This document shows, in pieces, positions 8,910 through 28,816 of a DNA stretch of 28,816 nucleotides. How positions within the stretch are numbered: the stretch's first letter is position 1; each line of letters opens with the position of its first letter. The notes below the pieces were generated by a model, which saw nothing but the letters and a program-made list of their open reading frames with translations, was not told where the DNA came from and did not search any database. This DNA comes from a virus (lineage: Duplodnaviria > Caudoviricetes), in IMG/VR virus record IMGVR_UViG_3300032212_000117, positions 1 to 28,816 of that record; one strand, written 5' to 3'. The position numbers and the translations under genes are program-made.

Positions 8910-11536
8910 GCGATGGTGTCCTGAACACATTCAATCGCGGTGAGGTCAGTTCGCTCGCGTTCGGGCGTGACAGGGTTGATCGGATCCGAAATTCAGCTGA
9001 GCTGGTTGATAACTGGGTTCCGATGCGGCTTGGCCCGATGATCCGTCGCGGTGGTTTTGAAGTGATTGCTGCTGCCCTGACGGGGTCGCGGTTTTTTGAA
9101 TTCTTCTATTCGCTGAGCGAAGTGGCTGCACTTGAGATGGGAGACAGCCTGCTGCGCATCTGGAAAGATGACGCGCTGATGTCCCGCACCGCAGTGACAT
9201 CGACGATTGCGAATGGCGACTTTGCGACCGATCTGGCCAGCTGGACTGACGCCTCGGGGGCCGGCTCCTCTGTGACGTGGACAGCGAGCGGCGCCAAGTT
9301 TGTCGGGGCTGACACGACTGACGCGGTTTTGCACCAAACGCTGGGAAGCACACAGACGGGCGCTGAGCACGGTTTGCGGATAAAGGTTATCGACGCACCG
9401 CTTCGGGTTCTGATCGGCACCAGCGGAGCCAGCAGCGACGATATTACGGACAGTTTGCTTGAGCCTGGGGAATATTCTTTGGTTTTCACGCCAGATGCGG
9501 CGGCAACCATCACATTTGTGAATGATCAGGTGTATAGCGCCACGCTCGAAAGTGTTGAGTTGGAGGCTGCTGGCACGGTGACGATCCCGACACCGGTCCC
9601 GCTAGCGGATGTCGATAGTGTTTTCATGTCTCAGCAAGCGGGCCGGATTTACTGCAACTGGTCTGGTGAGCAATTCATGATTGAGCGCCGAGGGCCTAAG
9701 TCGTGGGGCGTTGTTGATTATCGCGTTGATGATGGCCCGTTCGATACCGTAAACTTGGATGAGGGCCTCACGCTGACGGCAGGTGCCCTGAAGGGCGACA
9801 CAACGCTGACGGCATCAAAGCGGCACTTCAAGGCGGCAGACGTAGGCACGCTGCGGAAGTTGCTAAGCACAGGCCAGGAGGTGAGCGCAACCGTCACGGC
9901 AGAAGATAATGGCACGGATTCGGTCAGGGTTACGGGTACGAACGGCCCTTCCCGTGCCTTCAGATTTACGATCTCGGGCACTTTTGTCGCGAGTGTTTTG
10001 CTTCAGCGATCGACAGATGGCACCAGCGGGTGGGAGACAGCGCGGGGGCCATTCACATCCACGATCACAGAAAGCTGGGATGACGATCTTGACGGGACGG
10101 TTTATTTCTATCGGCTGCATGTCCCTTCTGGTGGCTTCACGAGCGGCTCCGTTGGTCTGAATATCTCGTATTCAGGCGGCGGCATCGAGGGCATTTGCCG
10201 GATTAAATCGATCACAAGCTCGACCGTGGCACAGGTCCAGGTGCTTCAGGCTATGGGATCCACGGATGCCACACGGGATTGGCGCCGCAGCCAATGGGGC
10301 GGCGAGGCCGGTTACCCGAATGCGAACGCGCTTTACGAAGGGCGACTTTGGCAGGCAGGCAAAGAGGGCCATTGGGGCTCGGTAAGTGATTCCCCGCGTT
10401 CCTACGACCGCGACTTAGAGGGCGCAAGTTCGTCCATTTTCAAGACCATTGGTCAGGGTCCGGTCGATGAGGTGAGCTGGATTGCAGCCGCGTCTCGGTT
10501 GGCGCTCGGACTTGCAAGCGACGTAATCCCGGTTCGATCGTCATCCTTTGGTGAGGCGATGACCCAAGATAATGTGCTTTTGCGGGATGGTCCGAACCAA
10601 GGTGCCGCACTGGTTGACCCGAAGCGTTTGGGCAATTCGCTGTTTTATGTCCACGCGAACGGTTCGAAGATCTATGAGTTGACATATTCCACGGGGGATG
10701 ACGGCTTCCACGCGAATGATCAGACGCTGCTCCACGAGGATATTTGCAAGCCGGGTGCTTCTGAGCTGGCGCTTGCGATACAACCGGAAACACGCCTCTT
10801 TGTCAGGTTGAGCGACGGCAGTGCTCGGGTTCAGCTGTTTGACAAGGCCGAGGATATTCTGGGCTGGTCCAGGATCACGCTCGCAAGCGGTCAGATAACC
10901 GGGATTTTCACGTTGCCGGCGACAGATGAGACCATGATTTATGCCAAGATCTCTTATGGCGGCACGGAATACCTCTGCAAGCTTGCGAAGTTGAGCGAGT
11001 TCAATACACGGCCTGCGGACCTGTTTACCCACTATGCGGGTCCAATTCAGACTTGCACGGGGCTTGATCGCTTCGATGGCGTTTCGGTTGAGGCTTGGTC
11101 TGGGTCTGCGAAGATTGGCACGTTCACGCCTTCGGGCGGTTCGATTGATCTTGGTGCCAGCTACTCTGATGTGACGGTTGGATTGACGATCACGGCCAAA
11201 TATAAGTCCGGCAAGCTCGGCCAGTATGGTGAGCGATCGGTTTTGTCAGAGCGCAAGCGAGTCGTGGATCTGGCGATCTTAATGAAAAGTGTATGGCATG
11301 AGGGCCTGACTTTCGGCGTGAGCGATACGCGCCAGGATGCCCTGCCATTGTATTACAAAGGCGCAGAGCTGGATACGACTGCTCTGATTGATGATTTCGA
11401 TACTGTCGGTGTTCCGTTTGAGGGGGATTTCGATGTCGATAGCCGGATCTATATCACCGCCATGGGACCGGCGACCATTCTGGCTCTAAGTTTTGACTAT
11501 GACGAACGCGAACGTCAGGCCCGCGCAGCCCAGTGA
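8906..11536 (+). CDS. Tail nozzle (T7 gp12 / tail tubular protein B-like)
   Basis: N-terminal TFNRGEVS...NWVPMRLGPMIRRGG, GYPNANALYEGRLW and GWSR motifs of this beta-propeller family; 876 aa with inserted beta-sandwich segments. Confidence 0.88.
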   Translation: MSDGVLNTFNRGEVSSLAFGRDRVDRIRNSAELVDNWVPMRLGPMIRRGGFEVIAAALTGSRFFEFFYSLSEVAALEMGDSLLRIWKDDALMSRTAVTSTIANGDFATDLASWTDASGAGSSVTWTASGAKFVGADTTDAVLHQTLGSTQTGAEHGLRIKVIDAPLRVLIGTSGASSDDITDSLLEPGEYSLVFTPDAAATITFVNDQVYSATLESVELEAAGTVTIPTPVPLADVDSVFMSQQAGRIYCNWSGEQFMIERRGPKSWGVVDYRVDDGPFDTVNLDEGLTLTAGALKGDTTLTASKRHFKAADVGTLRKLLSTGQEVSATVTAEDNGTDSVRVTGTNGPSRAFRFTISGTFVASVLLQRSTDGTSGWETARGPFTSTITESWDDDLDGTVYFYRLHVPSGGFTSGSVGLNISYSGGGIEGICRIKSITSSTVAQVQVLQAMGSTDATRDWRRSQWGGEAGYPNANALYEGRLWQAGKEGHWGSVSDSPRSYDRDLEGASSSIFKTIGQGPVDEVSWIAAASRLALGLASDVIPVRSSSFGEAMTQDNVLLRDGPNQGAALVDPKRLGNSLFYVHANGSKIYELTYSTGDDGFHANDQTLLHEDICKPGASELALAIQPETRLFVRLSDGSARVQLFDKAEDILGWSRITLASGQITGIFTLPATDETMIYAKISYGGTEYLCKLAKLSEFNTRPADLFTHYAGPIQTCTGLDRFDGVSVEAWSGSAKIGTFTPSGGSIDLGASYSDVTVGLTITAKYKSGKLGQYGERSVLSERKRVVDLAILMKSVWHEGLTFGVSDTRQDALPLYYKGAELDTTALIDDFDTVGVPFEGDFDVDSRIYITAMGPATILALSFDYDERERQARAAQ

Positions 11537-14107: not shown

Positions 14108-17100
14108 ATGACACCTGAACAGATCATTGAACAGGAAAAAGCGCGCAGCGGTGCAGGTGGGGTTGAGATGGCTCCGACACCTGACACCATAATTGCGCGC
14201 GAAAAAGAGCGCTTGGCCAATAGTGCCTCTGGGTCGTTCTACACGATGCGCGAGACGCAGCCAGAGCGTGCTAGCAAGGTTATTTCGCTCTCTGATCGGC
14301 TTGGCGCTGAACGTGATTTTGTTGATCGCAATCTTGAGACGATGGAAGAGGCTGCTGCCGAAGATGAGCGTCGGAGCCTGCTGGCTCAATTCCCGAAGGT
14401 GGCGCAGTTCTTCTCTGACCCGTATCGAGCCGCAGAGGCGAAAGATAGCGTCTCCAACTTTGCTGAGATCGAAAAAGCATTTGCGGCCCGTCAGAAAGCA
14501 TCCCGGCCTAAAGGTTGGCTAGAGGCTCCATTCTCACAGACCGGAGATCTGGCGCGGTCAGCTGCGGGTGAGTTCGTCAACATGTTCGGCATGGGTGTTC
14601 GCGGTGCGGGTGACCTCACAGGAGCGTATGTGAACACCATGCGCGGCGGTGCCAATATGGTGCCTGGTCTTCGCGAGGGATTGGCCGAACTGGACCGTGT
14701 TGAGGCAGAAATCGCTCCAGAGGCGAAAAACTTCGCGCCACAGAATTATCTGCGCACAGCGGGTGGGGGCGTCTCCGAGCTGGGCGAGATCATCAAGCCC
14801 AAGGATATGGGCTTCGAGGACAAAGTTGCTGGTGCGCTTGGTCAAATTGTTGGTGCTGTTATCACCACGGTTGCTGGTGGTCCGGGCGCGTCTGCTGGTT
14901 TATTCATGGGTATGGGCGCTGATCAACAGGGTCAGGCTATGCGCAATGCTGGCCTCAACCCAGACGAGATGCTGCCTGAGCTGGTGGCCGGTGCTGGAAT
15001 TACTGGATTGAGCGAGCAATTGCGTCTCGGGTCGATCATGCGGATAATGCCGAAAGAAGCGCGCCAGAAGGTGGTTTCAAAGATGCTGGCCCGTGTTGCG
15101 GGTCAGGCCGGTGAAGAAGCGGTTCAGGAGTCTGTTGAGGGTATCCTGCAGAACGTTATGACCACGACATATGACGCGGATGCGAGTGTTTTCGATGGGA
15201 TTGCAGAGCAGGCCACGACAGCTGGTGCGGCCGCTGCGATTTTCCAGACCCTTGTTGAGGTCGCGTTGCCCGGCAAACAGCGTGGCGTGCGTGCTGAGAC
15301 CAATGCCCAGGAATTGATGGATATTCGCGAGGCGATCGAACAGACGCCCGTCTTCCAGCGTTCACGCGAAAGCATAGAGGCATTTCTTCAGCAGGCTGGT
15401 GAGGGCGAGACGATCCTGCTGCACAGCGAAGATCTGGTTGAGCTTTATCAGTCAGCCCCGCAAGAGTTTCTGCAGCGCATGGATGAGGTTGGTCTCACCG
15501 AAGACGATATTTCTCGCGCTATGGATGGTCATGACATAGAGGTCGAGGCCGCAAAGATCCTGTCCGTTTCCGAGGGCTTCGAGGATTGGGTCAAGATCGC
15601 CAAGGCCGATGGAGAGACACCAACGCTTCGCGAGCTGGAGCGATCTGTTGAAGATTCCGACGCTATGGGCGCCGTGGACTTCACAGAGGCGTTTGAGCGC
15701 ATCGCTAAGCAGGATGAGGCGCTGGAGGGCTTTGAGCGCGTACAGAGCGCTGTTACAGAGCAATTGGTCACTGCGGGGCGCGGACAAGCCGAGGCAGAGG
15801 CCGCAGGCGTCGTATGGGGCGCCATGTTCCGTCAGCTAGCCGAGGCCGGTGTAGACGAGGGCGCTGTGTTCGATCGGCTTGGTTTGCGGATCAATGAGCC
15901 TGCTGCACCACGCCTGCCTAAGCCGCAAGAGCCACAAAGCCTGCATTCTTTCATTCGAGAGCTGGGCGGGATCCGCGAAAGCTTCGGCGAGGATCAGAGC
16001 GGACACTTGCGCGGTGAGGTCGATGCGCGGCTTGGCGAACGTGTTCCAGGTCTGATCAATAATGCTTCTGGCGTCACACTGGATGAGATTTTCCGTGCCG
16101 CAACCGAGGAAGGCGGGTTTGAAATCCGCGATGAGCAAGACCTGCTGGATCTTCTGGATCAGGATTTGTCGGGCAACCGTGTCTATCCGGTTGGTGAGGC
16201 AGAGGTCTATTCAGCCGAACTGGATGCTTATGAAGCGCAGTTTGAGAAGCCAGATGGCGAGGTCATGGATCAGGCCGCTGAGGCCGGCTACGAAGGCTCA
16301 GACCGGGGCGAGGCCTCCGAATGGCTTGCTGCCTCTCAGAAGGGCCTAGACATGTCCCAAGAGGCTCGTATGGCCCGTGCGCGGGAGATGGGGTTTGATA
16401 CGGAGCAGGTGCTGTATCATGGAACTGGCGCAGACTTTCAGGAGTTTTTACGCGTCCCTCCGGCGCGTTCAACTAGCGCAGACTCCGCACGCGCCGGCGT
16501 ATGGATGACGGATTCCGCTCAGGAAGCTGCAGAGTATGGAGAGCTTGCTGCGCAAAATCTGAAAACAAACGTGCTTCAGCAGCGAATCAACCAGGCTGAG
16601 CGGCGCGGAGACTGGGACGAAGTAAACAAATTAACCCAAGAATGGGAGGCCTCCGATGCCGCGGGCTTTGATGGAGAGATGGTTCTCCCATTGGTTTCGC
16701 GTGGAAGTCTTCGGGTGGTCGATCTGGGTGGCAAAAAGTTCTCTGAAGCTGGGAATGAAATTTGGCAGGCAATCAACGCTGCTCAAAAAGAAGGGGTCGC
16801 TGGCGTCAGATTCACAAATATAGTGGACCCAGTTAGTAGTGCGGTCCCAACTGAGCCGACAACTCATACGCTCATCTTCGACCCCTCCAACATCCGCTCA
16901 GTAAACGCAGCTTTCGATCCAAACGCTTCTGAGAGCGCGAACCTGCTTGCCCAGAACCCGCCGCGCTCTCTGTTCGCCGCGATGAAAATGGACCCGCAAG
17001 ACCGGGCCGATTGGTATGATCGGATTGTCGATGAGCGGAAGGTTGGAACGAAGACCATCCTTACACTCAAAGCTGATACACGGAATTTGATCGACGATGA

Positions 17101-20100
17101 TGTGGTGATCGCGATCGAGAACGGGATTGACGTTGAGTTCACCGCTGACGGAATGCACGCAAACCGTGATAGCGCACCAACGCCTGAAGATATTGCGAAG
17201 GGTGCGCGGGTCATGGCGATGTCCACGGCAGCGCTTCAAGAATGGATGCTGCGCAATGACAGTCCCTTTGTCGGCTTCACGGGCGCGACTGAGGCGCATA
17301 ACCGACTTTACGAGAGTATGCTCGGGCGCTTTGATTTTGATGGCTATTTAGGGTATAAGACTCACGACTATCGCGCGATGCTGAATGTCGAGGCGGATGG
17401 GACAAAGATAGCTGACGCTGATCCGTATGATTCAGCGCCTGGCTTCATGATCGTAAAGGACGGGTATCTTGAACAAGCAAAATATTTCCTCAAGTCCCGC
17501 CAAGATGGACTTGCCGCAGACGCCACCGCATTCGGAGAATACGGCGCCGGAATCATTACCAAACGACTCGGCAGCACAGTTCCCCTTGAACGACGTTCTC
17601 GACGAGTGGGAGGCCCGGATAGCGGCGGGAACAGCGACGGACGAGGATCTGGAGTTTCTGGAGATGGGCAAGCTGTTTCTGGAAGCGATGTCGGCCTCAC
17701 CCCAATAAGGCCGCAGCAGCGCGAGCTGTTTCAAAGTGCGCAGCAAAAGGCCAGGCCGTCTGAGGTCGGTGTAGAAATCCCTAACAGCAATGGCCTTGTG
17801 GCGATCCGCACAGATGATCTGGGCTTCACCAATAGTGCTGAGAAGGCCATGTTTGATCCGCCGCCACGCTTCCGTGACGCGCAGAACATGACCAAGGATC
17901 AGTGGCGTAAGTACTTCAAGGAAGCTGGCGCCACCAAGGAAGCGTTTGAGTTCATTATTGAGCCTGCGTTGAAGGATATGTCTGACAAGGGCGACCTGCG
18001 CAAAGCTGATGTGATCAAGGCGGTTCGGGCCAATCGGCCAGACGTTCGCGCAAATGACACGGTGGCAAAAAAGCTGAAGCCGTGGCAGCAGGAGGCCTTA
18101 GACGTTGCTGACGATCCGATCGAACTTGCTCGCCTTGGTAAGCGGGCAGAGAGGTTTGTTCGGGATTATGAGGCAGGGCTCAAGGGAGAGCACAGCTATA
18201 GCGAGTATATCTCTCCAGGCCCCGCCACGGGGTATCGGCAAGAGCTGATTGTGGACCCTAGCGTGAATTACAGTTCCCACAACTGGTCGTCCCGCGGCGT
18301 GCTGGCTCACATCCGCATGACGATTCGCCAGATCGTGACCGGCGAAAAGGTGATGCATGCCGATGAGCTTCAGTCTGACCTGCATCAGGAGGGGGCGCAG
18401 TATGGGTATCGGGGTGACCCAAGCTCGCGCGCAGAGCGTCAGCAGGCGTACATGGATGCGCAGGCGGCGCACAATAGGGCAATTGACAGATGGACTGAGT
18501 GGGCAGAGCGGAAGGGCCTTCCTCAAGAGAACATTGGAAATCCTGACAGGGCGGGCACGTCAGAAATGCTTGACGACACAGGGCGCGAGTTGGTGCGCGA
18601 GTACTTCCGAACGGCTGATGTTCTTTCTCAAGTGGGTGAGGCCACACGCAAGGGCAATCGCCAAGATACAATGCGCCCGCCACGCGCACCCATGAAGGAC
18701 TGGGAGAAGCCCGCCATCCGTCGCATTCTTCAGCGGGCAATGGAGGAGGATGTCGATCTGGTGACGTTCACCAGCTTTGATACGCTGCACAACGCGCTTC
18801 AGACGGCTGACGGTACGCGCAATTTCTATGATGAGCGCCTGCCTAAGCACATCCGCAAGGTGGCCAAGCAATTGGGCGCCAAGGTTGAGCGGGCTGTGCT
18901 GCGTCAAGAGGAGTCCGCCTATTCCGTTCAGCGCATGAAGGATAAGATCACCGCGCTTGAGGAAAGACTAAAGCTGGCCAAGGAGGATGGTAATTTAAAT
19001 TATGGTGATCCCTCCACGATTAGGAGGACCATTCGTGGGCTAAAGCATCAGATCAGGCGCTCCGAGCAGGGCGGTGACGCTGTCCTTGCCATCCGCCTCA
19101 CCCCAGAGGCCAAGCAGAAGCTGCAGACCGAAGGCAATGTGCTGTTTCAATCAAACGACATCCATGACGGTTTTTATTCCGCGCTAGAGCGCAAGGTTTC
19201 TGAGATCAAAATGGATCGCGCTCCGGTCGATCAATGGATTTCGACGATTGAGAACCTGAAGGGCATCAAAAAAGAAGAGCTCGAATGGACGGGCATTCTG
19301 GATATGCTGCGCGCTCGCAAAGAAGAACACGATGCTGCCGGACGCAATCAGGCGCTTGTATTCGAGAAGGCGGATATTGTCAGCGCGATCCAGCAAAAAG
19401 GCGTCAAGATTGAAACGATCGAGGCGACCGAAGATGGCAGCGATGAGGGTGTAACTTTTGGGGCATCTGAGGTTTGGGAAGATCCCGAAGCTTGGGAATG
19501 GCGCATTGATGACGAAGTGGATTGGATTGCTGAGAGCGAGGGTGAAAGCATCCGTGAAGAGGCCACACGCGAAGTCGCTGCTGATGATCAGCAATATATT
19601 GAAGACGCCATAGGCGAAGACGCCAGCGAAGAGGCGGTGTTGGAGTATGCTCGACAGGAGTTTGCAGACGAAATTGAGCAGAAATATCAGGACATTCTTC
19701 GCGAGCGCGCTGAAGAATCAGCCAAAGCCAGTTACTACGATGACCCGACTTACATCATCCCGATAAAAGATGGCGAAGGCGACCAGATTGGAATGCTGCT
19801 CGGCAACGACAACTCGGGCTGGGATGTTCGCGCGTCCATGCATTATCGCGATGTCGTGCGCAATGACATCTGGTCTCAAGCAGAGGCCGAGGTTCAAGCG
19901 CGTGAATGGGCCGCAGAAGAAGGTTATGCGGGCGGTGAGGTTGGTCGCGGCCAACGTGCGCAGTGGATGGATTATGTCACTGACGGGCCGTACGAGAATT
20001 ATCGCGAGTTCAAGATCACGCTTCCAGAAGTGCCGGGCGAGTTTGTCGAGGAGTCTCACTTCACTGACCCGAATATCGTGGCTTGGGGGCGAACGACTGA

Positions 20101-23100
20101 TCGAGACTTGATCGTAAACCAGCACGACAACTTAGACGCGCGCGTCAAGGAGATTGCGGAAACCCTGACGGAGGATGCAAGCTTTGACATCCGGCGTACG
20201 AAAGCTGGGATTGAGCAATCTACGGCTTTGATTGAGCGCGGGCGAAAAGAGTTAGAGGCTCTGAAAAATAACGAGCGAGCTCATCCCAGTGAGAAATATA
20301 GCGTACAGGATGAGGTCGATCGCTATATCCGCAATCGGGCCGAGCATGAGCAAGACCTGATCAGACAGCGCGCAAATTGGGATAGTCGCGGGCGTGATCA
20401 ACATGCCCTCCAAATGGCTCTGCGTGAGCAAGAGGTTTCTGCTTTTTATATCGATGAGGCCCAATCCGACTGGCATCAGCAGGGACGGCAGGGGATTTAC
20501 GATACGCCGGAGGAGCGTGCTCGCCGCGATGAAATGGAAGATGACTTGCAGAGCAAGCTTGGCTCTCTTTCCACTGAAATAAATGAGTTTGGCAGGCGCT
20601 ACAGCGAATTACGTGAAAAGCTGTTCGACGGGGGTTCGGTCTCTCCCAAGGGCCATGATGTGTCAGAAGATTATAAACAAATAGCAAGTGAGAACCAAAA
20701 CCGGTATCGCATTGGCCTGAAAAAGCTGGGCGTTGAACTCAATCCAAACTATCCGAATGCGATGGAGGAGTTCGCCAAGATGGTGGACTCTGTCGCGCAC
20801 GGAGTTAATGATTTCAACACGGTTTTTCCAGACGCAGAGAGTGACGGTCTGATCCGTGAGATGGTGACCATCGCCACAGAGCAATACAAGCGACGGTCAG
20901 AAAGGCGGGCGCTGGAGCTTCAGCTCGACAAAGTTCGGGGAGCCCGTGCTGTCCCCAACGCTCCCTTTAAGGGCGACGCCTGGATCAATCTCCTCATGAA
21001 GAAGATGATCCTCCAAGCCGTTGGCGAGGGCAAAGACGCAATTGCGTGGGCAGATGCGCAGGTTGTCAAAGATCGATGGTCTGGCCGCTATGCCGAGCTG
21101 TACGAGAACATGTACGACAAGAAGATGGTCAAGGCCGCTCAAAAGCTGGTTGGTGCCAAGGCGAAGCACATGGACCTTGATGGCGGCGAAAAGAAAAGCC
21201 AGCAGAAACGCACAGATATGTACGTTCAGGCTTATGACCGATTGACGGACGAGGGAGATGTGCTCCGAATCGCGCTGGAGGAAAACAATACGGACGCCGT
21301 GCAAGCCATAGCGCGTGATGTAAGCTCTATTGTCACTAATGAGTCTGTCAGCGGTCAAGACTTGCGAATTGGCCGAGAGCTGAATGAAGAATTGTTCGCG
21401 TGGGTCCGGTCGGGCGGTTGGTCCGAAAGCCAAGGCTACTGGATCATTGAGCTGACCCCGGAAATGCGTGGACGGATCAAGCGCGAGGGCTTTCCGCTTT
21501 TCCAGGGACAAGACAAACAGCCTCGCGCCTCAGTCTTAATACCTGGCGGCGGCGTCCTCACTGACCAGAACGTCATCGTCAATCTGCTCAAGAAAAAAGA
21601 CCGCACGAGCTTCATGCACGAAAGCGCTCATATTTTTCTTGAGCTATATGCGGCGCTTGAAAGCGAAAATGAGGCGATTGCTGAGCGCATGGCCGCTATT
21701 CGCAAATGGCTGAAGATTGAGCCGGGCGAAAAGATTACCCGCGATCAGCACGAGAAATTTGCAGAGAGCTTTGAGGCTTACCTGATGGAGGGCGTGGCTC
21801 CGAGCGCTGAATTGCGCAGTGTGTTCCATTCCTTCCGGCAGTGGTTTGTGGATGTATATCGCCGGCTTCGCGGTCAGCTTCGCAATCTGGAGCCTGAAGC
21901 ACGCGACATCTTCGATCGTATGCTTGCCTCAGATGCCGAGATTGAAATGGCGCAGGGCCAGTATGTCGGCACGCTCTCGAATGTCATGGCGGGTTTGATG
22001 AAACCCGAACAGGTCGAGAAGTATCAGAAGCACGCCCGTAAGGCGGGCAATGTGGCCCGTGACAGGCTTTTCAAGAAGCACATGGAAGAGGTTAAGCGCC
22101 GGGAGCGTAAGGCCTACCAGGAGGAACAGGGCCGCGTTGAAGACATGGTTCGCGCCCAAATGGCTGAGTGGCCAGAGTATAAGGCGCTTACCGCGTTTGG
22201 TGAGGGTGGCCGGTCTCTCGATGTCGCGGAATCGCCTGAGAGCACAAAGCTGAACACGTCAGAGAATGGCGAGCACCCAGAGATTGTGGCGCCTGAAATG
22301 GGCTTCCTGTCAGCTGACGAGATGTTCAAGGCGGTTGCAAAGGTTCCAAGCCCAGAGGTTTTGATCCGTGAATCGGTCAAGAAGATCATGGGTGACCGCT
22401 ATGGCGACATGCTTCGTGATGGGACGATTGAGGCGGAAGCGATGGAAGCCGTGTTCAATGAGCCCACAATTCGCATGATGGAGGCTGAGCGCAATGCGCT
22501 GGCTGAAAAGGGGTCAGCTCAACCCATTCCTCTGATTGCCATTCGGCACGAAGCAGATCGGCTCATCAGCTCGATGCCGATCGATCAAGTCATCAAGCCT
22601 GGTAGATACGCGATTAAAGCGCGTGACCTGCACAAGAAATCGCTTCGCGCGGCTGCCAGGGGCAAGTGGGATGATGCGCTACGCTATACGCATCAGGCGA
22701 TGCTTCAGCACGAATTGGCGCGCAGAGCCTTCAAGGCGCGGGATGAGATTGAAAAGGCCAACCGCTATCTCGCCAAATTCGCGCCAAACCGAAAGCTGGA
22801 TCCGAAGAAGATCAATCCTGATCATATCGCAAAAATTCGCATTCTAATGGCGATGCCGGGCGCAGCTGACCAAGCAGAGGCGCGTAAGGAGCTTCAGGAC
22901 TTCGCTGAGAAGCAGGCTGAGCAAGGGCTGCCAATTGTCCTGCCGTTCGATGTGGCGCAAGACCGTGATCTTCCGCTGCGACGCCGCATGACAATGGAGC
23001 AGTTTCGTGAGTTTCGAGACAGCATCAAAAACCTGAATACGGTTGGTAGGCAGCAAAGCGCCATCGCTCTGGCAGAGTTCAATGATGAGGCACAGGCGCT

Positions 23101-25099
23101 CGCAGACGAGATCGATGCCAACTTCAAGGGCAAGCGCATCAGAGAGACGCGCAATCCTACCCGCACGGAGCGCGCATCCCGCATTGGACGCCAGATTGAT
23201 GCAACCATCATTCGGTGGCCTTTCCTGGTTGAATCACTTCAGGGCGGCAAGGTCGGGAAGATCGTTGAGGCGTTCGACACACGCCTGAGACAGGCCCTGA
23301 CGAACCGGAATGCCCGTCGCCAGAAGATGGCCGATGAGTTGGCTGCGATCTTCAAAAAGCATGGCATCAGCCAGAACGAGCTGAATAGTCGGGTTTCCGC
23401 ACCAGCGATTGAGGCAGGAGCCGTCAAATTCGAGCAGATCATGGCTATTGCGCTCAATATGGGCACTGAACAGAACCGGGACCGCCTTGCCGCTGATCCG
23501 TCAATGCTGGGCGATATGACTGCGATCGAGGCAATGCTTGCCGAGCACCTTGAGCAGCGTCACTGGGATGCAGCGCAGGAAGTCTGGGATCTGATCAATA
23601 CGCTTTGGCCAGACGCGAGTGCGGTTGAGCGCACCGCAACAGGCGTCACGCCCAAAAAGGTCGAGGCATCATCTGTTCAAACAAAGTTCGGCGCTTACCG
23701 AGGCGGCTACTATCCGCTGAAATACGACCGGGCGTTTTTGACGAATAATGACCTTCAGAAGAAGGATGAGATTGAAGAGTGGAAGAACGGCGTCAACGGC
23801 ATGGCAACCCGTGCATCGACGCGTCAGGGGTTCCTGAAAGAGCGTCAGCAGAATGTTGAGCGCCCTCTTGATCTGAGTTTGGGTGTCATCCTCTCGCACA
23901 TCGATGATGTGACCAATGACATCTACATGCGGGAGCCCGCATCTTACGTCTCACGGATGCTGAACAAGAACCGCATTCGCAAGGCGATCAAGGAGACGCA
24001 GGGCGAAGAGTATTTGAAGACGCTCGAAACCATCCTGAAGCGCACGGTGACGGGTACGGAGCAGCCCGATACAGCGTTTGAGAAGTTTCTGCAGACACTG
24101 CGCATAAACGCCTCAGTCGCCATCCTAGGCGGCAATGTGGTGACGGCTGGTCTGGCTCCGATCTCGTATTTCCAGACGGTCATTCCGCAATATGGGTTCA
24201 AGACCGTTTTTGCTGGCATCGCTGAATATTACGCCAACCCGATCAAGAATGCGAAACTGATTGTCGAGAAGTCTGCTTTCATGCGTGAGCGGCAGGATAC
24301 ACTGACCCGTGAGGCTCATGAGTTAATCCGAAGATCTGCCGGCCAAAGCCGTTTCGCTAAAGTGCAGGGAGCCGGATATTGGATGATGGCCATTGCCGAG
24401 AAGCATTCAGTCTCAGGCCCGCTCTGGATTGGGGTATACAATCAAGCGAAGTCTGAAGGCTCAAGCGAGGCGGATGCAATCACTGCGGCTGATCGTGCCG
24501 TATCGACCACGCAGGGATCTGGCCTTGAGATCGACCAGTCTGTCATGCAGGGCGGCAACGAGGGTCTAAGACTGCTCTCGTTCATGTGGGGCTATGTCTC
24601 GGGCTATTATGGCACGGTGCGAAATGACGTTGTGAGCGAGCAAGGGCTCAAGAAACTGATGCCGCTCGTCAAGCACATGGTCTTCCTGAACCTGGTTGCC
24701 TCTATGCTTGAGGCCCTGATCCGAGGCGGTTTCGGAGATGAAGAAGATCCCTATGTCGTTGCGGTCTGGCAGATGATGATGCGCAACACGTTTGGTTTGA
24801 TCCCCGGCGTGTCGAGCGCGGTCAGCAAGTATGACAGCGGTCCTGCTGCCTTTCAGGTTGGAACGAGCATCACACGCGCCACGGAAAATTGGGCTAAGGC
24901 CGGAACGCAGATCTACGAAGAAGGCGAGGCCGAGGGCGAGACCGTCCGGCGTGCGACGCTTGAGACGCTTAAAGCTGGCGGGTTCCTTTTCGGTGTTCCC
25001 GGCACGGTCCAGGCCATGAAAGCCGAAAAGACGTTTGCGGAAGATGACGATCCGACACTGTATGAGGCGATCGTTTCGGGTCCAGATGACGACAACTAA
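14108..25099 (+). CDS. Giant polyvalent ejection protein (gp16 position, 3663 aa): LPD22-like N-terminus, cargo array (ART-like, GNAT-like, duplicated DExQSD modules), HExxH metallopeptidase, helical/hydrophobic C-terminus
   Basis: Uninterrupted ORF at the position of the last ejection gene; YHGT (16415), HESAH (21617) plus HEKFA (21749), internal duplication, and hydrophobic helices near both ends. Confidence 0.88.
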   Translation: MTPEQIIEQEKARSGAGGVEMAPTPDTIIAREKERLANSASGSFYTMRETQPERASKVISLSDRLGAERDFVDRNLETMEEAAAEDERRSLLAQFPKVAQFFSDPYRAAEAKDSVSNFAEIEKAFAARQKASRPKGWLEAPFSQTGDLARSAAGEFVNMFGMGVRGAGDLTGAYVNTMRGGANMVPGLREGLAELDRVEAEIAPEAKNFAPQNYLRTAGGGVSELGEIIKPKDMGFEDKVAGALGQIVGAVITTVAGGPGASAGLFMGMGADQQGQAMRNAGLNPDEMLPELVAGAGITGLSEQLRLGSIMRIMPKEARQKVVSKMLARVAGQAGEEAVQESVEGILQNVMTTTYDADASVFDGIAEQATTAGAAAAIFQTLVEVALPGKQRGVRAETNAQELMDIREAIEQTPVFQRSRESIEAFLQQAGEGETILLHSEDLVELYQSAPQEFLQRMDEVGLTEDDISRAMDGHDIEVEAAKILSVSEGFEDWVKIAKADGETPTLRELERSVEDSDAMGAVDFTEAFERIAKQDEALEGFERVQSAVTEQLVTAGRGQAEAEAAGVVWGAMFRQLAEAGVDEGAVFDRLGLRINEPAAPRLPKPQEPQSLHSFIRELGGIRESFGEDQSGHLRGEVDARLGERVPGLINNASGVTLDEIFRAATEEGGFEIRDEQDLLDLLDQDLSGNRVYPVGEAEVYSAELDAYEAQFEKPDGEVMDQAAEAGYEGSDRGEASEWLAASQKGLDMSQEARMARAREMGFDTEQVLYHGTGADFQEFLRVPPARSTSADSARAGVWMTDSAQEAAEYGELAAQNLKTNVLQQRINQAERRGDWDEVNKLTQEWEASDAAGFDGEMVLPLVSRGSLRVVDLGGKKFSEAGNEIWQAINAAQKEGVAGVRFTNIVDPVSSAVPTEPTTHTLIFDPSNIRSVNAAFDPNASESANLLAQNPPRSLFAAMKMDPQDRADWYDRIVDERKVGTKTILTLKADTRNLIDDDVVIAIENGIDVEFTADGMHANRDSAPTPEDIAKGARVMAMSTAALQEWMLRNDSPFVGFTGATEAHNRLYESMLGRFDFDGYLGYKTHDYRAMLNVEADGTKIADADPYDSAPGFMIVKDGYLEQAKYFLKSRQDGLAADATAFGEYGAGIITKRLGSTVPLERRSRRVGGPDSGGNSDGRGSGVSGDGQAVSGSDVGLTPIRPQQRELFQSAQQKARPSEVGVEIPNSNGLVAIRTDDLGFTNSAEKAMFDPPPRFRDAQNMTKDQWRKYFKEAGATKEAFEFIIEPALKDMSDKGDLRKADVIKAVRANRPDVRANDTVAKKLKPWQQEALDVADDPIELARLGKRAERFVRDYEAGLKGEHSYSEYISPGPATGYRQELIVDPSVNYSSHNWSSRGVLAHIRMTIRQIVTGEKVMHADELQSDLHQEGAQYGYRGDPSSRAERQQAYMDAQAAHNRAIDRWTEWAERKGLPQENIGNPDRAGTSEMLDDTGRELVREYFRTADVLSQVGEATRKGNRQDTMRPPRAPMKDWEKPAIRRILQRAMEEDVDLVTFTSFDTLHNALQTADGTRNFYDERLPKHIRKVAKQLGAKVERAVLRQEESAYSVQRMKDKITALEERLKLAKEDGNLNYGDPSTIRRTIRGLKHQIRRSEQGGDAVLAIRLTPEAKQKLQTEGNVLFQSNDIHDGFYSALERKVSEIKMDRAPVDQWISTIENLKGIKKEELEWTGILDMLRARKEEHDAAGRNQALVFEKADIVSAIQQKGVKIETIEATEDGSDEGVTFGASEVWEDPEAWEWRIDDEVDWIAESEGESIREEATREVAADDQQYIEDAIGEDASEEAVLEYARQEFADEIEQKYQDILRERAEESAKASYYDDPTYIIPIKDGEGDQIGMLLGNDNSGWDVRASMHYRDVVRNDIWSQAEAEVQAREWAAEEGYAGGEVGRGQRAQWMDYVTDGPYENYREFKITLPEVPGEFVEESHFTDPNIVAWGRTTDRDLIVNQHDNLDARVKEIAETLTEDASFDIRRTKAGIEQSTALIERGRKELEALKNNERAHPSEKYSVQDEVDRYIRNRAEHEQDLIRQRANWDSRGRDQHALQMALREQEVSAFYIDEAQSDWHQQGRQGIYDTPEERARRDEMEDDLQSKLGSLSTEINEFGRRYSELREKLFDGGSVSPKGHDVSEDYKQIASENQNRYRIGLKKLGVELNPNYPNAMEEFAKMVDSVAHGVNDFNTVFPDAESDGLIREMVTIATEQYKRRSERRALELQLDKVRGARAVPNAPFKGDAWINLLMKKMILQAVGEGKDAIAWADAQVVKDRWSGRYAELYENMYDKKMVKAAQKLVGAKAKHMDLDGGEKKSQQKRTDMYVQAYDRLTDEGDVLRIALEENNTDAVQAIARDVSSIVTNESVSGQDLRIGRELNEELFAWVRSGGWSESQGYWIIELTPEMRGRIKREGFPLFQGQDKQPRASVLIPGGGVLTDQNVIVNLLKKKDRTSFMHESAHIFLELYAALESENEAIAERMAAIRKWLKIEPGEKITRDQHEKFAESFEAYLMEGVAPSAELRSVFHSFRQWFVDVYRRLRGQLRNLEPEARDIFDRMLASDAEIEMAQGQYVGTLSNVMAGLMKPEQVEKYQKHARKAGNVARDRLFKKHMEEVKRRERKAYQEEQGRVEDMVRAQMAEWPEYKALTAFGEGGRSLDVAESPESTKLNTSENGEHPEIVAPEMGFLSADEMFKAVAKVPSPEVLIRESVKKIMGDRYGDMLRDGTIEAEAMEAVFNEPTIRMMEAERNALAEKGSAQPIPLIAIRHEADRLISSMPIDQVIKPGRYAIKARDLHKKSLRAAARGKWDDALRYTHQAMLQHELARRAFKARDEIEKANRYLAKFAPNRKLDPKKINPDHIAKIRILMAMPGAADQAEARKELQDFAEKQAEQGLPIVLPFDVAQDRDLPLRRRMTMEQFREFRDSIKNLNTVGRQQSAIALAEFNDEAQALADEIDANFKGKRIRETRNPTRTERASRIGRQIDATIIRWPFLVESLQGGKVGKIVEAFDTRLRQALTNRNARRQKMADELAAIFKKHGISQNELNSRVSAPAIEAGAVKFEQIMAIALNMGTEQNRDRLAADPSMLGDMTAIEAMLAEHLEQRHWDAAQEVWDLINTLWPDASAVERTATGVTPKKVEASSVQTKFGAYRGGYYPLKYDRAFLTNNDLQKKDEIEEWKNGVNGMATRASTRQGFLKERQQNVERPLDLSLGVILSHIDDVTNDIYMREPASYVSRMLNKNRIRKAIKETQGEEYLKTLETILKRTVTGTEQPDTAFEKFLQTLRINASVAILGGNVVTAGLAPISYFQTVIPQYGFKTVFAGIAEYYANPIKNAKLIVEKSAFMRERQDTLTREAHELIRRSAGQSRFAKVQGAGYWMMAIAEKHSVSGPLWIGVYNQAKSEGSSEADAITAADRAVSTTQGSGLEIDQSVMQGGNEGLRLLSFMWGYVSGYYGTVRNDVVSEQGLKKLMPLVKHMVFLNLVASMLEALIRGGFGDEEDPYVVAVWQMMMRNTFGLIPGVSSAVSKYDSGPAAFQVGTSITRATENWAKAGTQIYEEGEAEGETVRRATLETLKAGGFLFGVPGTVQAMKAEKTFAEDDDPTLYEAIVSGPDDDN
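16274..16954 (+). other. ADP-ribosyltransferase-like domain (ART-PolyVal type) within the giant protein
   Basis: LYHGT...F..F, GVWMTDS...A.EYG, GVRFTN and IFDPSNIRSVNAAFDP follow the motif order of this family. Confidence 0.75.
17469..17708 (+). CDS. Putative nested gene (79 aa, acidic, helical C-terminus) in the +1 frame inside the giant gene
   Basis: AAAGGA 8 nt before a TTG start; protein-like C-terminus LNDVLDEWEARIAAGTATDEDLEFLEMGKLFLEAM; the host frame here degenerates into an R/G/S low-complexity stretch. Confidence 0.6.
   Translation: MNKQNISSSPAKMDLPQTPPHSENTAPESLPNDSAAQFPLNDVLDEWEARIAAGTATDEDLEFLEMGKLFLEAMSASPQ
17735..21505 (+). repeat. Two diverged tandem copies of one protein module (17735-19150 and 19151-21505)
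   Basis: Collinear motif pairs: GFTNSAE/GFYSALE, DQW/DQW, KADV/KADI, GP...YR/GP...YR, DELQSDLHQEG/DEAQSDWHQQG, PRAPMK/PNAPFK, LTPE...EG..LFQ in both. Confidence 0.85.
21506..21930 (+). other. Zincin-like metallopeptidase domain within the giant protein
   Basis: DRTSFMHESAHIFLE (HExxH at 21617-21631) and downstream HEKFAESFEAYLMEG supplying a candidate third Zn ligand. Confidence 0.8.
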
Positions 25100-25814: not shown

Positions 25815-25945
25815 CGGGGTAGTTCCTTTGGTGAAGTCAGCGTCGAGAGGTGGTGAAGACACCTTTCGGCGCGACGTTTTCAAACAGCATTTTTAGGAAA
25901 ATATCGGGGCAACGCGTTGCCGTCCGATGCTTTGAATATAGCAGA

Positions 25946-25975
25946 TTTCGCGAAAATTACGATGTCATTCGCGAA
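25946..25975. promoter_or_regulatory. Pair of palindromic sites (TTTCGCGAAA and TTCGCGAA), putative operator
   Basis: Palindromes at 25946-25955 and 25968-25975, centres 21 bp apart, in an AT-rich divergent intergenic region. Confidence 0.5.
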
Positions 25976-26001
25976 AAAGTGCCGAAAACGGCGATTTTTT
26001 T
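25974..26001 (+). terminator. Weak terminator-like hairpin before the tail-fibre genes
   Basis: AAAAAGT-GCCG-AAAA-CGGC-GATTTTTTT: short GC stem with flanking A and T tracts. Confidence 0.4.
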
Positions 26002-26014
26002 CATTGAGGTGAAT

Positions 26015-26548
26015 ATGTCCGTAAACCTTCGGATTGCTGAGGCGATTCAGAACCAAACGTTGGCGCCATGCAGGGTTGCCGCGACAGATAATCTAACGCT
26101 TGCCGGCCTTCAAACGGTTGCCGGTATTGTGGTGGCTGCGGGCGATCGAGTGCTCGTGCCTGAGCAAACAGATGCCACTGAGAACGGGATTTACGTTGTT
26201 TCAGGCGGCACATGGGTCCGATCATCTGATCTGAATGGGTCGGGGGACTTGAGCACGGGCGCGATTGTCCCGATCTCAGAGGCTCAAGAATTGTGGCAGG
26301 TTTCTTATGCCGGAGCCTTCTCGGCAGGTGTGACTGCATTGACGTGGGTTCGCCTTCTGGCCGCATTGCGCACGCCAGTGACTGCAACAGACCTTGCGGA
26401 CGCGACGCATAGCGTAAACACCACAAACAAGTATGCGGGGCTGACCGTCCCTGACAGCACGAATACTCGCCTGATGATTACCTTCGGTGCGTCGGCGACA
26501 TCACCCTGGTACGTGGCCGATGGATCGGCATCGATCACCCCTTCTTAA
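26015..26548 (+). CDS. Short tail fibre/adapter protein (177 aa)
   Basis: GAGGT RBS before ATG at 26015; N-terminal CRVAATDNLTLAGLQTV...GDRVLV..Q.D..ENGIYV...W.R domain common in phage tail fibres; short C-terminal domain. Confidence 0.8.
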   Translation: MSVNLRIAEAIQNQTLAPCRVAATDNLTLAGLQTVAGIVVAAGDRVLVPEQTDATENGIYVVSGGTWVRSSDLNGSGDLSTGAIVPISEAQELWQVSYAGAFSAGVTALTWVRLLAALRTPVTATDLADATHSVNTTNKYAGLTVPDSTNTRLMITFGASATSPWYVADGSASITPS

Positions 26549-26571: not shown

Positions 26572-28816
26572 ATGGGAGCTATTGAGAGGCTTGCAAAAGC
26601 GGTCCAAGCGAACACGCTTGCGCCTTGCCGAGTTGCGACGACTGAGAATATTACCCTTTCGGGATTGCAATCGGTTGATGGTGTAACCGTCATACCGGGC
26701 GATCGGGTTGCGGCTGTTGCGCAGTCGGACACGACTGAGAACGGGGTCTGGGTTGCTGCGACAGGCGCATGGAGCAGGGCGCCTGATTTCAACGGCACTG
26801 GTTCGATCCTCACCGGTTCCGTGATCGCGGTGTCTGAAGGGACCATCAACCAGCAATCGATGTTTCAGCTCTCTTTCGCGGGATCGTTTGCGCCCGGCTC
26901 ATCGAGCCTCGCTTTCGCACGGATTTACACAGAGGCGATCGATACATCTTGGGATTCCTCTCTCGCTGGATCATTGAGTGCCTACATGGCCGGCGCGCTC
27001 GGCGCTGCGGATCAGGCGGCATTTTTAGCGGCGACAGGTCTTGATGACCTTCTTTCCCAATACAACGGCGTAATCATCGACGTGGTATCCACCACGATCA
27101 TCGACGTTTTTGAAGGCAAGGGCGCTGACAAAGAGTTCACTTGGGTTCGGCGACGCTTTGAGCGCAAGACCAGCACGGCCCTTAATTATGATGTTTGGCT
27201 GATCACGTCTATTCGGGCGGTTGCGCTTCAAACTGACGGAACGTGGAAATATGGCCAGGTTTTGGAGGCGCCGGGCGCGCATGATTTTGCAATCCGTGAA
27301 AATGGCAAAGCGGATTTCATGGGCGGGACAGCCCACGGAAACGAGGTCATTACGGGCTCTGTTGCCTTGGTCGTGGACGGTGAGGCTCAGACGATCACTG
27401 CGGGCGCGCGGTATGTCGGCGATAGCGCTTACCTTGAACAGACCACGATCTTCTATGAATATATCTCAAGCTCGGACTATACCGGCTCTGAATTGGGGCG
27501 CTGCACACGTCGATGGGAGTTCAGGGACGTCACTGATGGCGCTATGCGTCTGCATAACACGGTCAACTGGGATGCAAATCTAAACACGACCATTCCCGGT
27601 TTCAGTGTCGATTTCGCTTATCTGGCCATGTATCCCTATGATGGCACGTTCTTCACCAAGACCAATTGGGAGCCGGGCGGGACGCTTTCGACGCATGGCA
27701 ATGCAAACGTCACCTATCCAGGCACATCCACATGGGATGCAACGTCCATAACCATCCAGAACGATGACAGCTATTCTGTCACGGTTGCGCAGGTCTCTGG
27801 CTGGCCATCTGGCACAGCAACGGGGCGAGACACACTCGTCAGCACAAAGCGTAAGATTTATATGTCCTATCAGGGCCAAGGCTCCGGCAGCCCTGTGACG
27901 GTTGCCGATGGTGAGGCCTGGGCTGTGGTGACTGAATACACGACTTCTGTCCCAACGGTTACAAGCCCCTCGACGTTTGGAGATGCGGGTGTCACGCTGT
28001 CAGAACGGGCACGTGGCCGGCGCACCAGTGCTGGTAATGGCGAAATCATCTTTGAAAGCACGACTTTCACGCCAAGCGACTATTTCAGCGCTGGCGATAT
28101 TGTCACCTTCACACCTTCTGCCGATTTCTCGAACGGCTCTGGTGAAACGGTCAATCTGGCGGGTGAGTACATCATTCAGATTGTCGATGATGGAAACGAC
28201 AAGATTCAAATTCAAGCGCCCGGCGGTGACTGGGACGAGCTGGAAAATGATACTAATTGGACCAATAACGCGACGCCTTACCTTCTGTGTGAGCTGTCCC
28301 TAAATGGCGGGGGAAGCCCTGCGATTTCGAGTGTGGTGGCTGCGCCTGACTTGTCAGTGACCTGCGAGCTTCGCTTTGTGCGTAATTCGAGCGGCAACCT
28401 TGAGGTGCGCTGGCAGAATTACACGCCGGGCCGTGACTTTGATACTGACTTTGATGCGGGTGACACTATCACGGTTGTATCAGACACATACACGAACACG
28501 CTGGATGGATCGACCGAAACGGTCAATTTTTCATTCGATATGGTGATTGGGTCGATTGTCGGCGGCTCTAGCACATTCTATGTGAACCGTTCGTCAATGT
28601 CTGAAGAGTTGGCGGCAGAGGCCGACAAACTAGACGATGGCTGGACCAGTGATGCAACAGTTGGTTATCAGGCCGTGTTGATTAGCTCAGGCGCGGGCTC
28701 AACGGACTGGCAGACGCCTGACTTCAGCCTTGCAGATGACATTTCAACGCGCTGGGTTTTCCCGCCTGACACGGATTATGCGCTGGTTTCGTTCGAGTCT
28801 GACGATGATAGCTCTG
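26572..28816 (+). CDS. Tail fibre / receptor-binding protein, 3' truncated (at least 748 aa); absent from the ORF track
   Basis: AGGAG RBS, ATG at 26572, frame read to the window end with no stop: MGAIERLAKAVQANTLAPCRVATTENITLSGLQSVDG...; N-terminal domain paralogous to 26015-26548; beta-rich T/S/G/D body. Confidence 0.88.
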   Translation, partial: MGAIERLAKAVQANTLAPCRVATTENITLSGLQSVDGVTVIPGDRVAAVAQSDTTENGVWVAATGAWSRAPDFNGTGSILTGSVIAVSEGTINQQSMFQLSFAGSFAPGSSSLAFARIYTEAIDTSWDSSLAGSLSAYMAGALGAADQAAFLAATGLDDLLSQYNGVIIDVVSTTIIDVFEGKGADKEFTWVRRRFERKTSTALNYDVWLITSIRAVALQTDGTWKYGQVLEAPGAHDFAIRENGKADFMGGTAHGNEVITGSVALVVDGEAQTITAGARYVGDSAYLEQTTIFYEYISSSDYTGSELGRCTRRWEFRDVTDGAMRLHNTVNWDANLNTTIPGFSVDFAYLAMYPYDGTFFTKTNWEPGGTLSTHGNANVTYPGTSTWDATSITIQNDDSYSVTVAQVSGWPSGTATGRDTLVSTKRKIYMSYQGQGSGSPVTVADGEAWAVVTEYTTSVPTVTSPSTFGDAGVTLSERARGRRTSAGNGEIIFESTTFTPSDYFSAGDIVTFTPSADFSNGSGETVNLAGEYIIQIVDDGNDKIQIQAPGGDWDELENDTNWTNNATPYLLCELSLNGGGSPAISSVVAAPDLSVTCELRFVRNSSGNLEVRWQNYTPGRDFDTDFDAGDTITVVSDTYTNTLDGSTETVNFSFDMVIGSIVGGSSTFYVNRSSMSEELAAEADKLDDGWTSDATVGYQAVLISSGAGSTDWQTPDFSLADDISTRWVFPPDTDYALVSFESDDDSS

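Follow-up and report, generated by a model that had tools for sequence, protein, structure and literature searches.

Can a short reading frame lying out of register inside a giant phage virion gene be a gene in its own right, and what would its product do for the effector-like domain behind which it is placed? For this locus, the first-pass annotation had suggested an immunity or chaperone gene overprinted on a linker of the giant or, alternatively, a captured two-gene toxin-antitoxin unit read through in another frame. According to our analysis, the +1 frame is best explained as a conserved and selected gene, which was likely kept as the second member of a two-gene unit after its capture and the product of which is predicted to bind the GNAT-fold domain upstream and would likely restrain it, a reading to which, taken as a whole, we give slightly better than an even chance. 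That the frame is made as a protein is, judging from the sequence comparisons, very probable. Of the earlier proposal, a selected gene is borne out by comparative evidence and binding of the upstream domain by prediction, and the antidote role is one that we infer; the two alternatives merge into a single one, namely, a captured unit that is still working.

The giant virion gene and its GNAT-fold module

The window, which is the whole virus record of 28,816 bases analyzed here, holds a podophage virion module in which genes for the terminase subunits, portal, major capsid, tail, and internal virion proteins are followed by the gene of a 3663-aa giant (14108..25099, + strand). This gene encodes a polyvalent internal virion protein resembling Bbp10 of BPP-1, with matches to LPD22, ART-PolyVal, and, in its C-terminal part, phrog_9880, and it combines LPD, ART, and HExxH domains within a virion module, as polyvalent virion proteins do. 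Its closest cultured relatives according to tblastn include proteins of Xanthomonas phages and Bordetella BPP-1 Bbp10, at 24 to 30% identity, and a domain search detected no MuF match in it. The modules of the giant end in MDQ, LAQ, or LFQ (MDQ720, LAQ947, LFQ1207, LFQ1679, and LFQ2464, at 16262-16270, 16946-16954, 17726-17734, 19142-19150, and 21497-21505, + strand), with S or G following the LFQ boundaries, and relatives of the giant recombine at these xxQ boundaries, which we take to resemble the site of a glutamine-specific protease. A HESAH sequence, an instance of the HExxH motif, lies just after the last boundary, at 21617-21631. Two adjacent genes farther downstream, 25850-26548 and 26572-28815, both match phrog_11518 and phrog_2647 (tail-fibre or head-decoration families).

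The nested frame belongs to the module closed by the LFQ boundary at 17726..17734 (+ strand). The preceding module carries the ART-PolyVal domain (aa 768-933; 16409..16906, + strand), behind which no nested frame was flagged. It is followed by a domain (giant aa 950-1137; 16955..17518, + strand) that we assign, from structure comparison and its relatives, to the GNAT fold: GNATs make up most of the top 50 rows returned by VIA-align (best Z 7.0, rmsd 2.7, 103 residues aligned), a support that is moderate since the Z-scores are 6 to 7 (under 8) and the model has a mean pLDDT of 60. The acetyl-CoA motif A of GNATs, which we take to be R/QxxGxG/A, is degenerate, its position reading DIAKGAR in the window and not being conserved across the alignment of relatives. 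Because motif A is not intact, enzyme activity and toxicity of the domain are putative only.

The domain also resembles DUF6934 (PF22028), a family found as separate genes in Bacteroidota, with which it shares a similar region comprising a beta-strand and G-x-T/S and R-x-Y motifs. The Atlas gave 0.93 to clusters of which 46 to 47% of the members are DUF6934, and DUF6934 matches were obtained for 6 of 22 relatives (best E 1.4e-4); the window's own domain has no Pfam match at the curated cut-off of this family, and the pairwise comparison with the DUF6934 profile returned a probability of 8%. On these sequence data, we deem the link to DUF6934 a distant one. The domain was matched by none of 50,697 cultured phage records, Foldseek on the PDB gave no row at E 0.001, and a profile search of PDB sequences gave two rows at E about 0.4, both unrelated. 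Scans with the domain's motifs returned 7 viral and 41 genome loci, among which L027 is the only new true relative; four more turned out to be loci already known, and the remainder were rejected as chance matches. Among 401 genomes of L027's order, only L027's own genome matched.

Codon usage and selection in the +1 frame

The nested gene (17469..17708, + strand) runs from TTG to TAA over 79 codons in the +1 frame relative to the giant ORF 14108-25099. It starts 8 nt behind a Shine-Dalgarno (SD)-like AAAGGA (17455..17460, + strand), and its TAA stands 17 nt before the LFQ codons 17726-17734. Over its last 40 sense codons, the third position is G or C in 30/40 cases against 15/40 in the giant frame, which here uses CGA four times and GGA six times. 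Every count that the first-pass annotation had given was the same on recount. It had also remarked that the phage uses TTG starts elsewhere; the terL ORF begins with the same AAAGGA, 9 nt, and TTG. The annotation had also taken the giant's linker to be the shadow of another coding frame, and here the codon statistics and selection agree with it. When 40-codon segments stepped along the whole 11-kb giant were scored with a codon model derived from 12 further genes of the window, the shifted frame outscored the giant frame only in segments starting at 17498-17618 (peak difference of +0.54 versus a mean of -0.74, SD 0.30), the signal being restricted to nested codons 37-76. A score limited to synonymous codon choice did not favor the +1 frame.

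The SD pairing of the nested start, at -8.0 kcal/mol, ranks in the top 3.4% of the 348 +1-frame start-type codons of the giant. The length of the ORF was rejected as evidence because 11 of the 113 stop-to-stop +1 runs in the giant likewise reach at least 79 codons. Downstream starts at 17505 and 17586 were discarded for want of an SD, 17505 being moreover ACG in L001, and so were two antisense ORFs, 17432-17746 and 17368-17700, which contain stops in L004 and L003. In the relatives P0005 and P0006, the giant frame at window positions 17465-17476 reads GYEQA versus GYLEQA in the window; a TAT codon at this site would place ATG where the window has TTG.

The same cassette is present in L001/L004 and in L003 at about 70 to 75% identity, in giants whose downstream modules differ. 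The +1 frame is open in all three close homologues with DNA, and in L001/L004 and L003 it has the SD and TTG of the window, with the closing TAA placed three codons before the window's. The giant frame reads GTA AAG GAY across the SD in 3/3 homologues; SD and TTG fall in a part that is in any case conserved in the giant's own frame (IVKDGYLEQA). The signal of selection comes from nested codons 37-76 (17577..17696, + strand), which encode a conserved acidic helical hairpin in the +1 frame and an R/G/S/D linker in the giant frame. In this segment, pN/pS, computed from three sequences, is 0.32, 0.34, and 0.33 in the +1 frame versus 1.02, 1.5, and 0.96 in the giant frame, and 25/40 residues are identical in the former versus 16/39 in the latter. 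Variable columns are distributed over the +1 codon positions as 7/12/22, with 22/41 at third positions (binomial p 0.006), and the antisense frame whose third positions coincide with those of the +1 frame is interrupted by stops in L004 and L003. An upstream control showed the reverse pattern, with pN/pS of 0.07 to 0.46 in the giant frame and 1.1 to 2.9 in the +1 frame, which there contains stops (Fisher p 0.002). Neutral simulations reached the observed +1 conservation with P of 0.03 to 0.04 for window/L001 and at most 0.0002 for window/L003. In the same three sequences, nested codons 1-36 show no +1 constraint (0/14 aligned residues of the middle part are identical): codons 1-17 evolve according to the giant frame and codons 18-36 are unconstrained in both.

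These comparisons indicate a same-strand nested gene with purifying selection on the +1 frame over codons 37-76; the stops in homologues and the lack of purifying selection that the first-pass annotation had named as grounds against it did not turn up. Over these codons, the small gene appears to predate the giant's reading of the same bases, the linker being its shadow, as would suit a two-gene unit that was captured. A GC3-rich gene translated in this register seldom meets a stop and comes out as an R/G/S/D spacer, which would account for the linker.

Searches with the 79-aa product retrieved no homologue among 5.8 billion protein clusters, 18 pattern matches among viral contigs of which none was confirmed, and no Pfam or PHROGs match, including RHH and DUF1778. 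Residues 32-79 found nothing in the Atlas, and Foldseek against viral structures listed 35 rows, none at E 0.001. Such blank searches are no proof of novelty. Gene callers drop same-strand nested frames, so partners of this kind are absent from annotation and from protein databases.

Joint exchange, predicted complex, and rival readings

The GNAT-fold domain and the nested gene behave as one exchangeable cassette (16954..17715, + strand). L003 and L004 share 16875-17733 with the window as a single block, behind which the sequence differs. In L061, both flanks match the window (83% and 78%) but 16954-17715 does not; here, the cassette consists of a GNAT domain 28% identical to that of the window plus a different nested ORF, and profile comparison of this one pair of nested products detected no homology. 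The domain and its nested gene, then, travel together and are replaced together, as a short partner ORF directly behind an effector-like domain. A +1 ORF with a start at the end of the domain was found in 5/5 GNAT lineages with DNA (window/L004/L003, L061, L063/L064, L005-L007, and L027), that of L027 (TAAGGA, ATG, 55 aa) having been seen by eye and not flagged by score; the SDs are weak in some of these (L005, -1.0; L006, -3.4; L061, -4.2 kcal/mol).

Twenty-two protein relatives, either protein-only or DNA-backed, were scored for a shadow-like stretch. Behind the domain, one ranking in the top 2% of segments is present in 18 of the 19 relatives whose protein continues, a count possibly raised by the fact that the linker was part of the search query. 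The other 3/22 end about 105 residues past the motif, where the shadow would begin. The domain is internal in the window's giant and C-terminal in three clusters (P0026, P0028, and P0029), whose full-length members of 582 to 746 aa carry it at the tip. Two relatives of P0020 match in its N-terminal part only, and one of them, L071, carries other modules. L062 retains the last 95 nt of the window's nested gene (85% identical) behind a different module and with no good start, so a nested tail can be inherited without the GNAT domain. The +1 frame at L062:9870-9968, which follows a non-GNAT module, is chimeric: its start is like the L005:2311-2499 family, its end matches window 17636-17730 at 85% identity, and the two parts seem to have been joined by a crossover within the nested genes.

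In the AlphaFold model of the nested product, residues 1-38 are disordered and two helices, 39-53 and 58-76, follow (pLDDT about 90 or higher over 41-70), in keeping with the acidic helices that had been read off the end of the product beforehand. Model and selection agree: the disordered residues 1-38 are unconstrained in the +1 frame, and the hairpin 39-76 is constrained. Co-folding of the domain with nested residues 30-79, from alignments of 22 and 3 rows, respectively, gave a predicted complex with a score of 0.67 (runs of 0.67, 0.39, and 0.67), whereas the best of three controls scored 0.00. The mark used for this score is reached by 116/157 solved complexes and by 2/215 mismatched pairs, counts that are rough with custom alignments. 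The runs agree in at least 72% of contacts, with a partner pLDDT of at least 66, and recall of a close complex is a less likely source of the score because sequence searches turned up no relative of the domain with a solved structure. In the model, domain residues 5-24, 62-64, 75-92, and 111-122 face product residues 36-51 and 57-76 across a hydrophobic interface (I80, G83, A84, M87, and A88 against L44, F63, L64, G67, F70, and L71), the hairpin docking on domain helix 77-101, helix 113-124, and the N-terminal helices. By GNAT topology, this is presumably the acetyl-CoA face. On these models, the nested product probably binds the domain.

The course of events that we propose begins with a DUF6934-like gene and a small downstream partner gene that would have been built into the giant. 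Having lost the stop, the giant would read through the partner's codons in its own frame and so produce the R/G/S/D spacer, and the partner's start sits inside the last helix of the domain. Initiation at AAAGGA-TTG would take place on the late mRNA that also serves the giant, so that the partner is made alongside it, and its hairpin is predicted to dock on the domain at the presumed acetyl-CoA face. If the domain is harmful or active in the virion-building cell, the partner would mask it there, and the domain would be freed upon ejection of the giant into the next host.

A free two-gene counterpart may exist. In 5 of 201 Bacteroidota genomes, we obtained a DUF6934 gene over the cut-off, two of the five being near-identical, and a gene of 50 to 67 aa begins -4 to 40 nt behind every one of them (L073:1492-2107, L074:1495-2105, L075/L076:1477-2309, and L077:1516-2155); five further genomes had none above the cut-off. 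By gene order, these could represent an undescribed toxin-antitoxin-like pair. They differ from the window's cassette in that the sequence link is distant and the partners are separate and basic, whereas the nested product is acidic.

As to how the product acts on the domain, we hold an inhibitor and a folding aid to be about evenly matched as descriptions of the product itself. As a complete alternative, a product that binds the domain only to assist folding or assembly, by covering a hydrophobic groove, and is no antidote, seems unlikely to us. Selection, co-exchange, and the complex would apply to it just as well, and it would suit both the degenerate acetyl-CoA motif and the hydrophobic character of the predicted interface; moreover, the available part of PMC7314908 describes an acidic protein, TraH, that is encoded out of frame within traI and stabilizes the TraI relaxosome. 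Against this reading, gene order and size match the toxin-then-immunity layout, as far as given in the available part of PMC5576092, and the domain is also found as a swappable C-terminal tip of virion proteins.

Less probable again is that the hairpin forms an alternative C terminus of the giant, reached by a +1 slip near 17577-17586 and ending at the stop at 17708, in a product of about 1200 aa whose GNAT domain is capped in cis. The +1 constraint does set in only at codon 37-38, where all three homologues read GTT CCC NTT GA, the preceding 36 codons are unconstrained, and an open stretch of that kind is not rare at the +1 stop density of the giant (113 in 3661 codons). Yet 3/3 homologues keep SD and TTG with an uninterrupted frame behind them, and the base following CCC is not constant (C or A in DNA; V in P0002). 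Furthermore, a clear SD and ATG stand just past a +1 stop in L027, L068, and L069, and the +1 frames flagged in the survey described below have stronger SDs than other +1 runs (median of -6.5 versus -4.6, p 0.001). Since nested residues 1-36 lack +1 selection, later entry by a frameshift keeps this small share of probability.

Slightly weaker still is the proposal that the nested frame is a relic, the now untranslated shadow of a captured gene. Orphan pieces of nested frames do persist, as the L062 fragment shows. The read-through junction LTPI..Q.ELFQ, however, is common to all three homologues, which therefore diverged after the fusion, and their 20 to 35 changes in 124 nt spared the +1 protein, whereas neutral change would be expected to put a stop in this frame about half to two-thirds of the time. 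Least probable of all is that the small acidic product acts on a host or phage target of its own (e.g., in anti-defence) and has no relation to the GNAT domain, a reading that would suit the diversity of nested products behind several kinds of modules but not their block-wise co-exchange with the domain or a predicted complex whose controls stand at 0.00.

Comparable systems and other nested frames

Set beside known systems, the selected nested gene and its domain are predicted to work like a toxin-immunity pair and to be laid out like traH in traI. The latter pair, from the IncP plasmid RP4, has the same nested, out-of-frame layout, as far as the available part of the source goes (PMC7314908). 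TraH stabilizes a relaxosome, whereas the host gene in the window encodes a phage virion cargo protein and the nested gene ends a swappable effector-like module that its product is predicted to bind; the likeness claimed here is one of layout. For the MuF polymorphic toxins of temperate phages, the part of PMC5576092 considered here reports a short ORF right after 89.4% of 191 toxin genes. As in those pairs, a virion-linked effector domain is followed in the window by a short ORF and exchanged together with it. In MuF systems, by the same partial account (PMC5576092), the toxin is C-terminal and immunity is a separate downstream ORF, whereas the domain in the window is internal and its partner gene is read through. 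The window's giant also differs from MuF toxins in lacking a MuF match and in that the toxicity of its domain is putative.

The phage polyvalent proteins of Iyer et al. 2017 carry LPD22, ART-PolyVal, and HExxH as the window's giant does, and GNAT domains, of which the paper has two families, occur beside ART domains among their arrangements, in the portion covered; the word "overlap" is absent from its main text (PMC5512222). The GNAT-RHH type II systems AtaRT, TacAT, and KacAT likewise combine a GNAT-fold protein with a small partner, and AtaR blocks the active arrangement of acetyl-CoA, according to the part of PMC7758455 available. Unlike in these systems, the partner in the window is a downstream helical hairpin without RHH or DUF1778, and the GNAT domain is internal with a degenerate motif A; the cassette is not a GNAT-RHH toxin-antitoxin system. 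At the level of titles and abstract openings, in a literature mostly without subscription journals, papers on genes nested in or overlapping those of polyvalent or ejection proteins gave nothing on this arrangement, and neither did those on DUF6934, a family that one paper mentions. Against this background, the present case adds the exchange of domain and nested gene as one block, a counterpart made of two free genes, and the predicted complex of a cognate pair.

Same-strand +1 nested genes with their own start have precedents in phages, namely, Rz1 in Rz of lambda and E in D of phiX174. Rz1 and E serve lysis and are not tied to a modular effector cassette.

Frames of this kind recur in relatives. 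In a survey of 14 giants, from which the duplicate loci L002, L007, L063, and L067 were left out, 14 of 238 open +1 runs of at least 45 codons outscored the giant frame, all 14 with a start, compared with 2/141 of the +2 runs, neither with a start. At least one flagged frame is present in 11/14 giants and in 6/7 of those found through the C-terminal region alone. The flagged frames follow GNAT, Zeta-toxin, DUF7178, and, as seen by eye, ParB-like domains. Directly behind ART-PolyVal, none was flagged in the eight giants with an ART-PolyVal match, so not every cargo has a nested gene.

A broader model, which we offer tentatively and hold somewhat below an even chance, is that polyvalent virion proteins are chained effector-immunity units: each captured effector would have lost its stop, and the immunity gene behind it, read by the giant as a floppy spacer, would survive as a nested +1 gene. 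Effectors would thereby be released from the need for a C-terminal position. The R/G/S/D linkers would then hold, without annotation, a collection of inhibitors that are each cognate to an effector, in the window to a GNAT-fold domain and in relatives behind Zeta-toxin, DUF7178, and ParB-like domains. Were the partner an inhibitor, it would explain how harmful enzymes sit in the middle of a virion protein without poisoning the producer cell, give a simple rule for toxic modules, and supply the antidote for their cloning and study.

In L068, a 53-aa nested +1 ORF with a strong SD (9801-9962) lies directly behind a Zeta-toxin domain, a candidate for a second effector-partner pair. L005 has two tandem nested +1 ORFs behind a DUF7178-like module (2029-2499), the second of which resembles L062:8982-9233. 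Nested +1 ORFs with a GGAG-type SD and ATG are also seen at L069:10536-10808 and L065:1808-1975, one behind an HExxH-motif region and one behind a ParB-like stretch.
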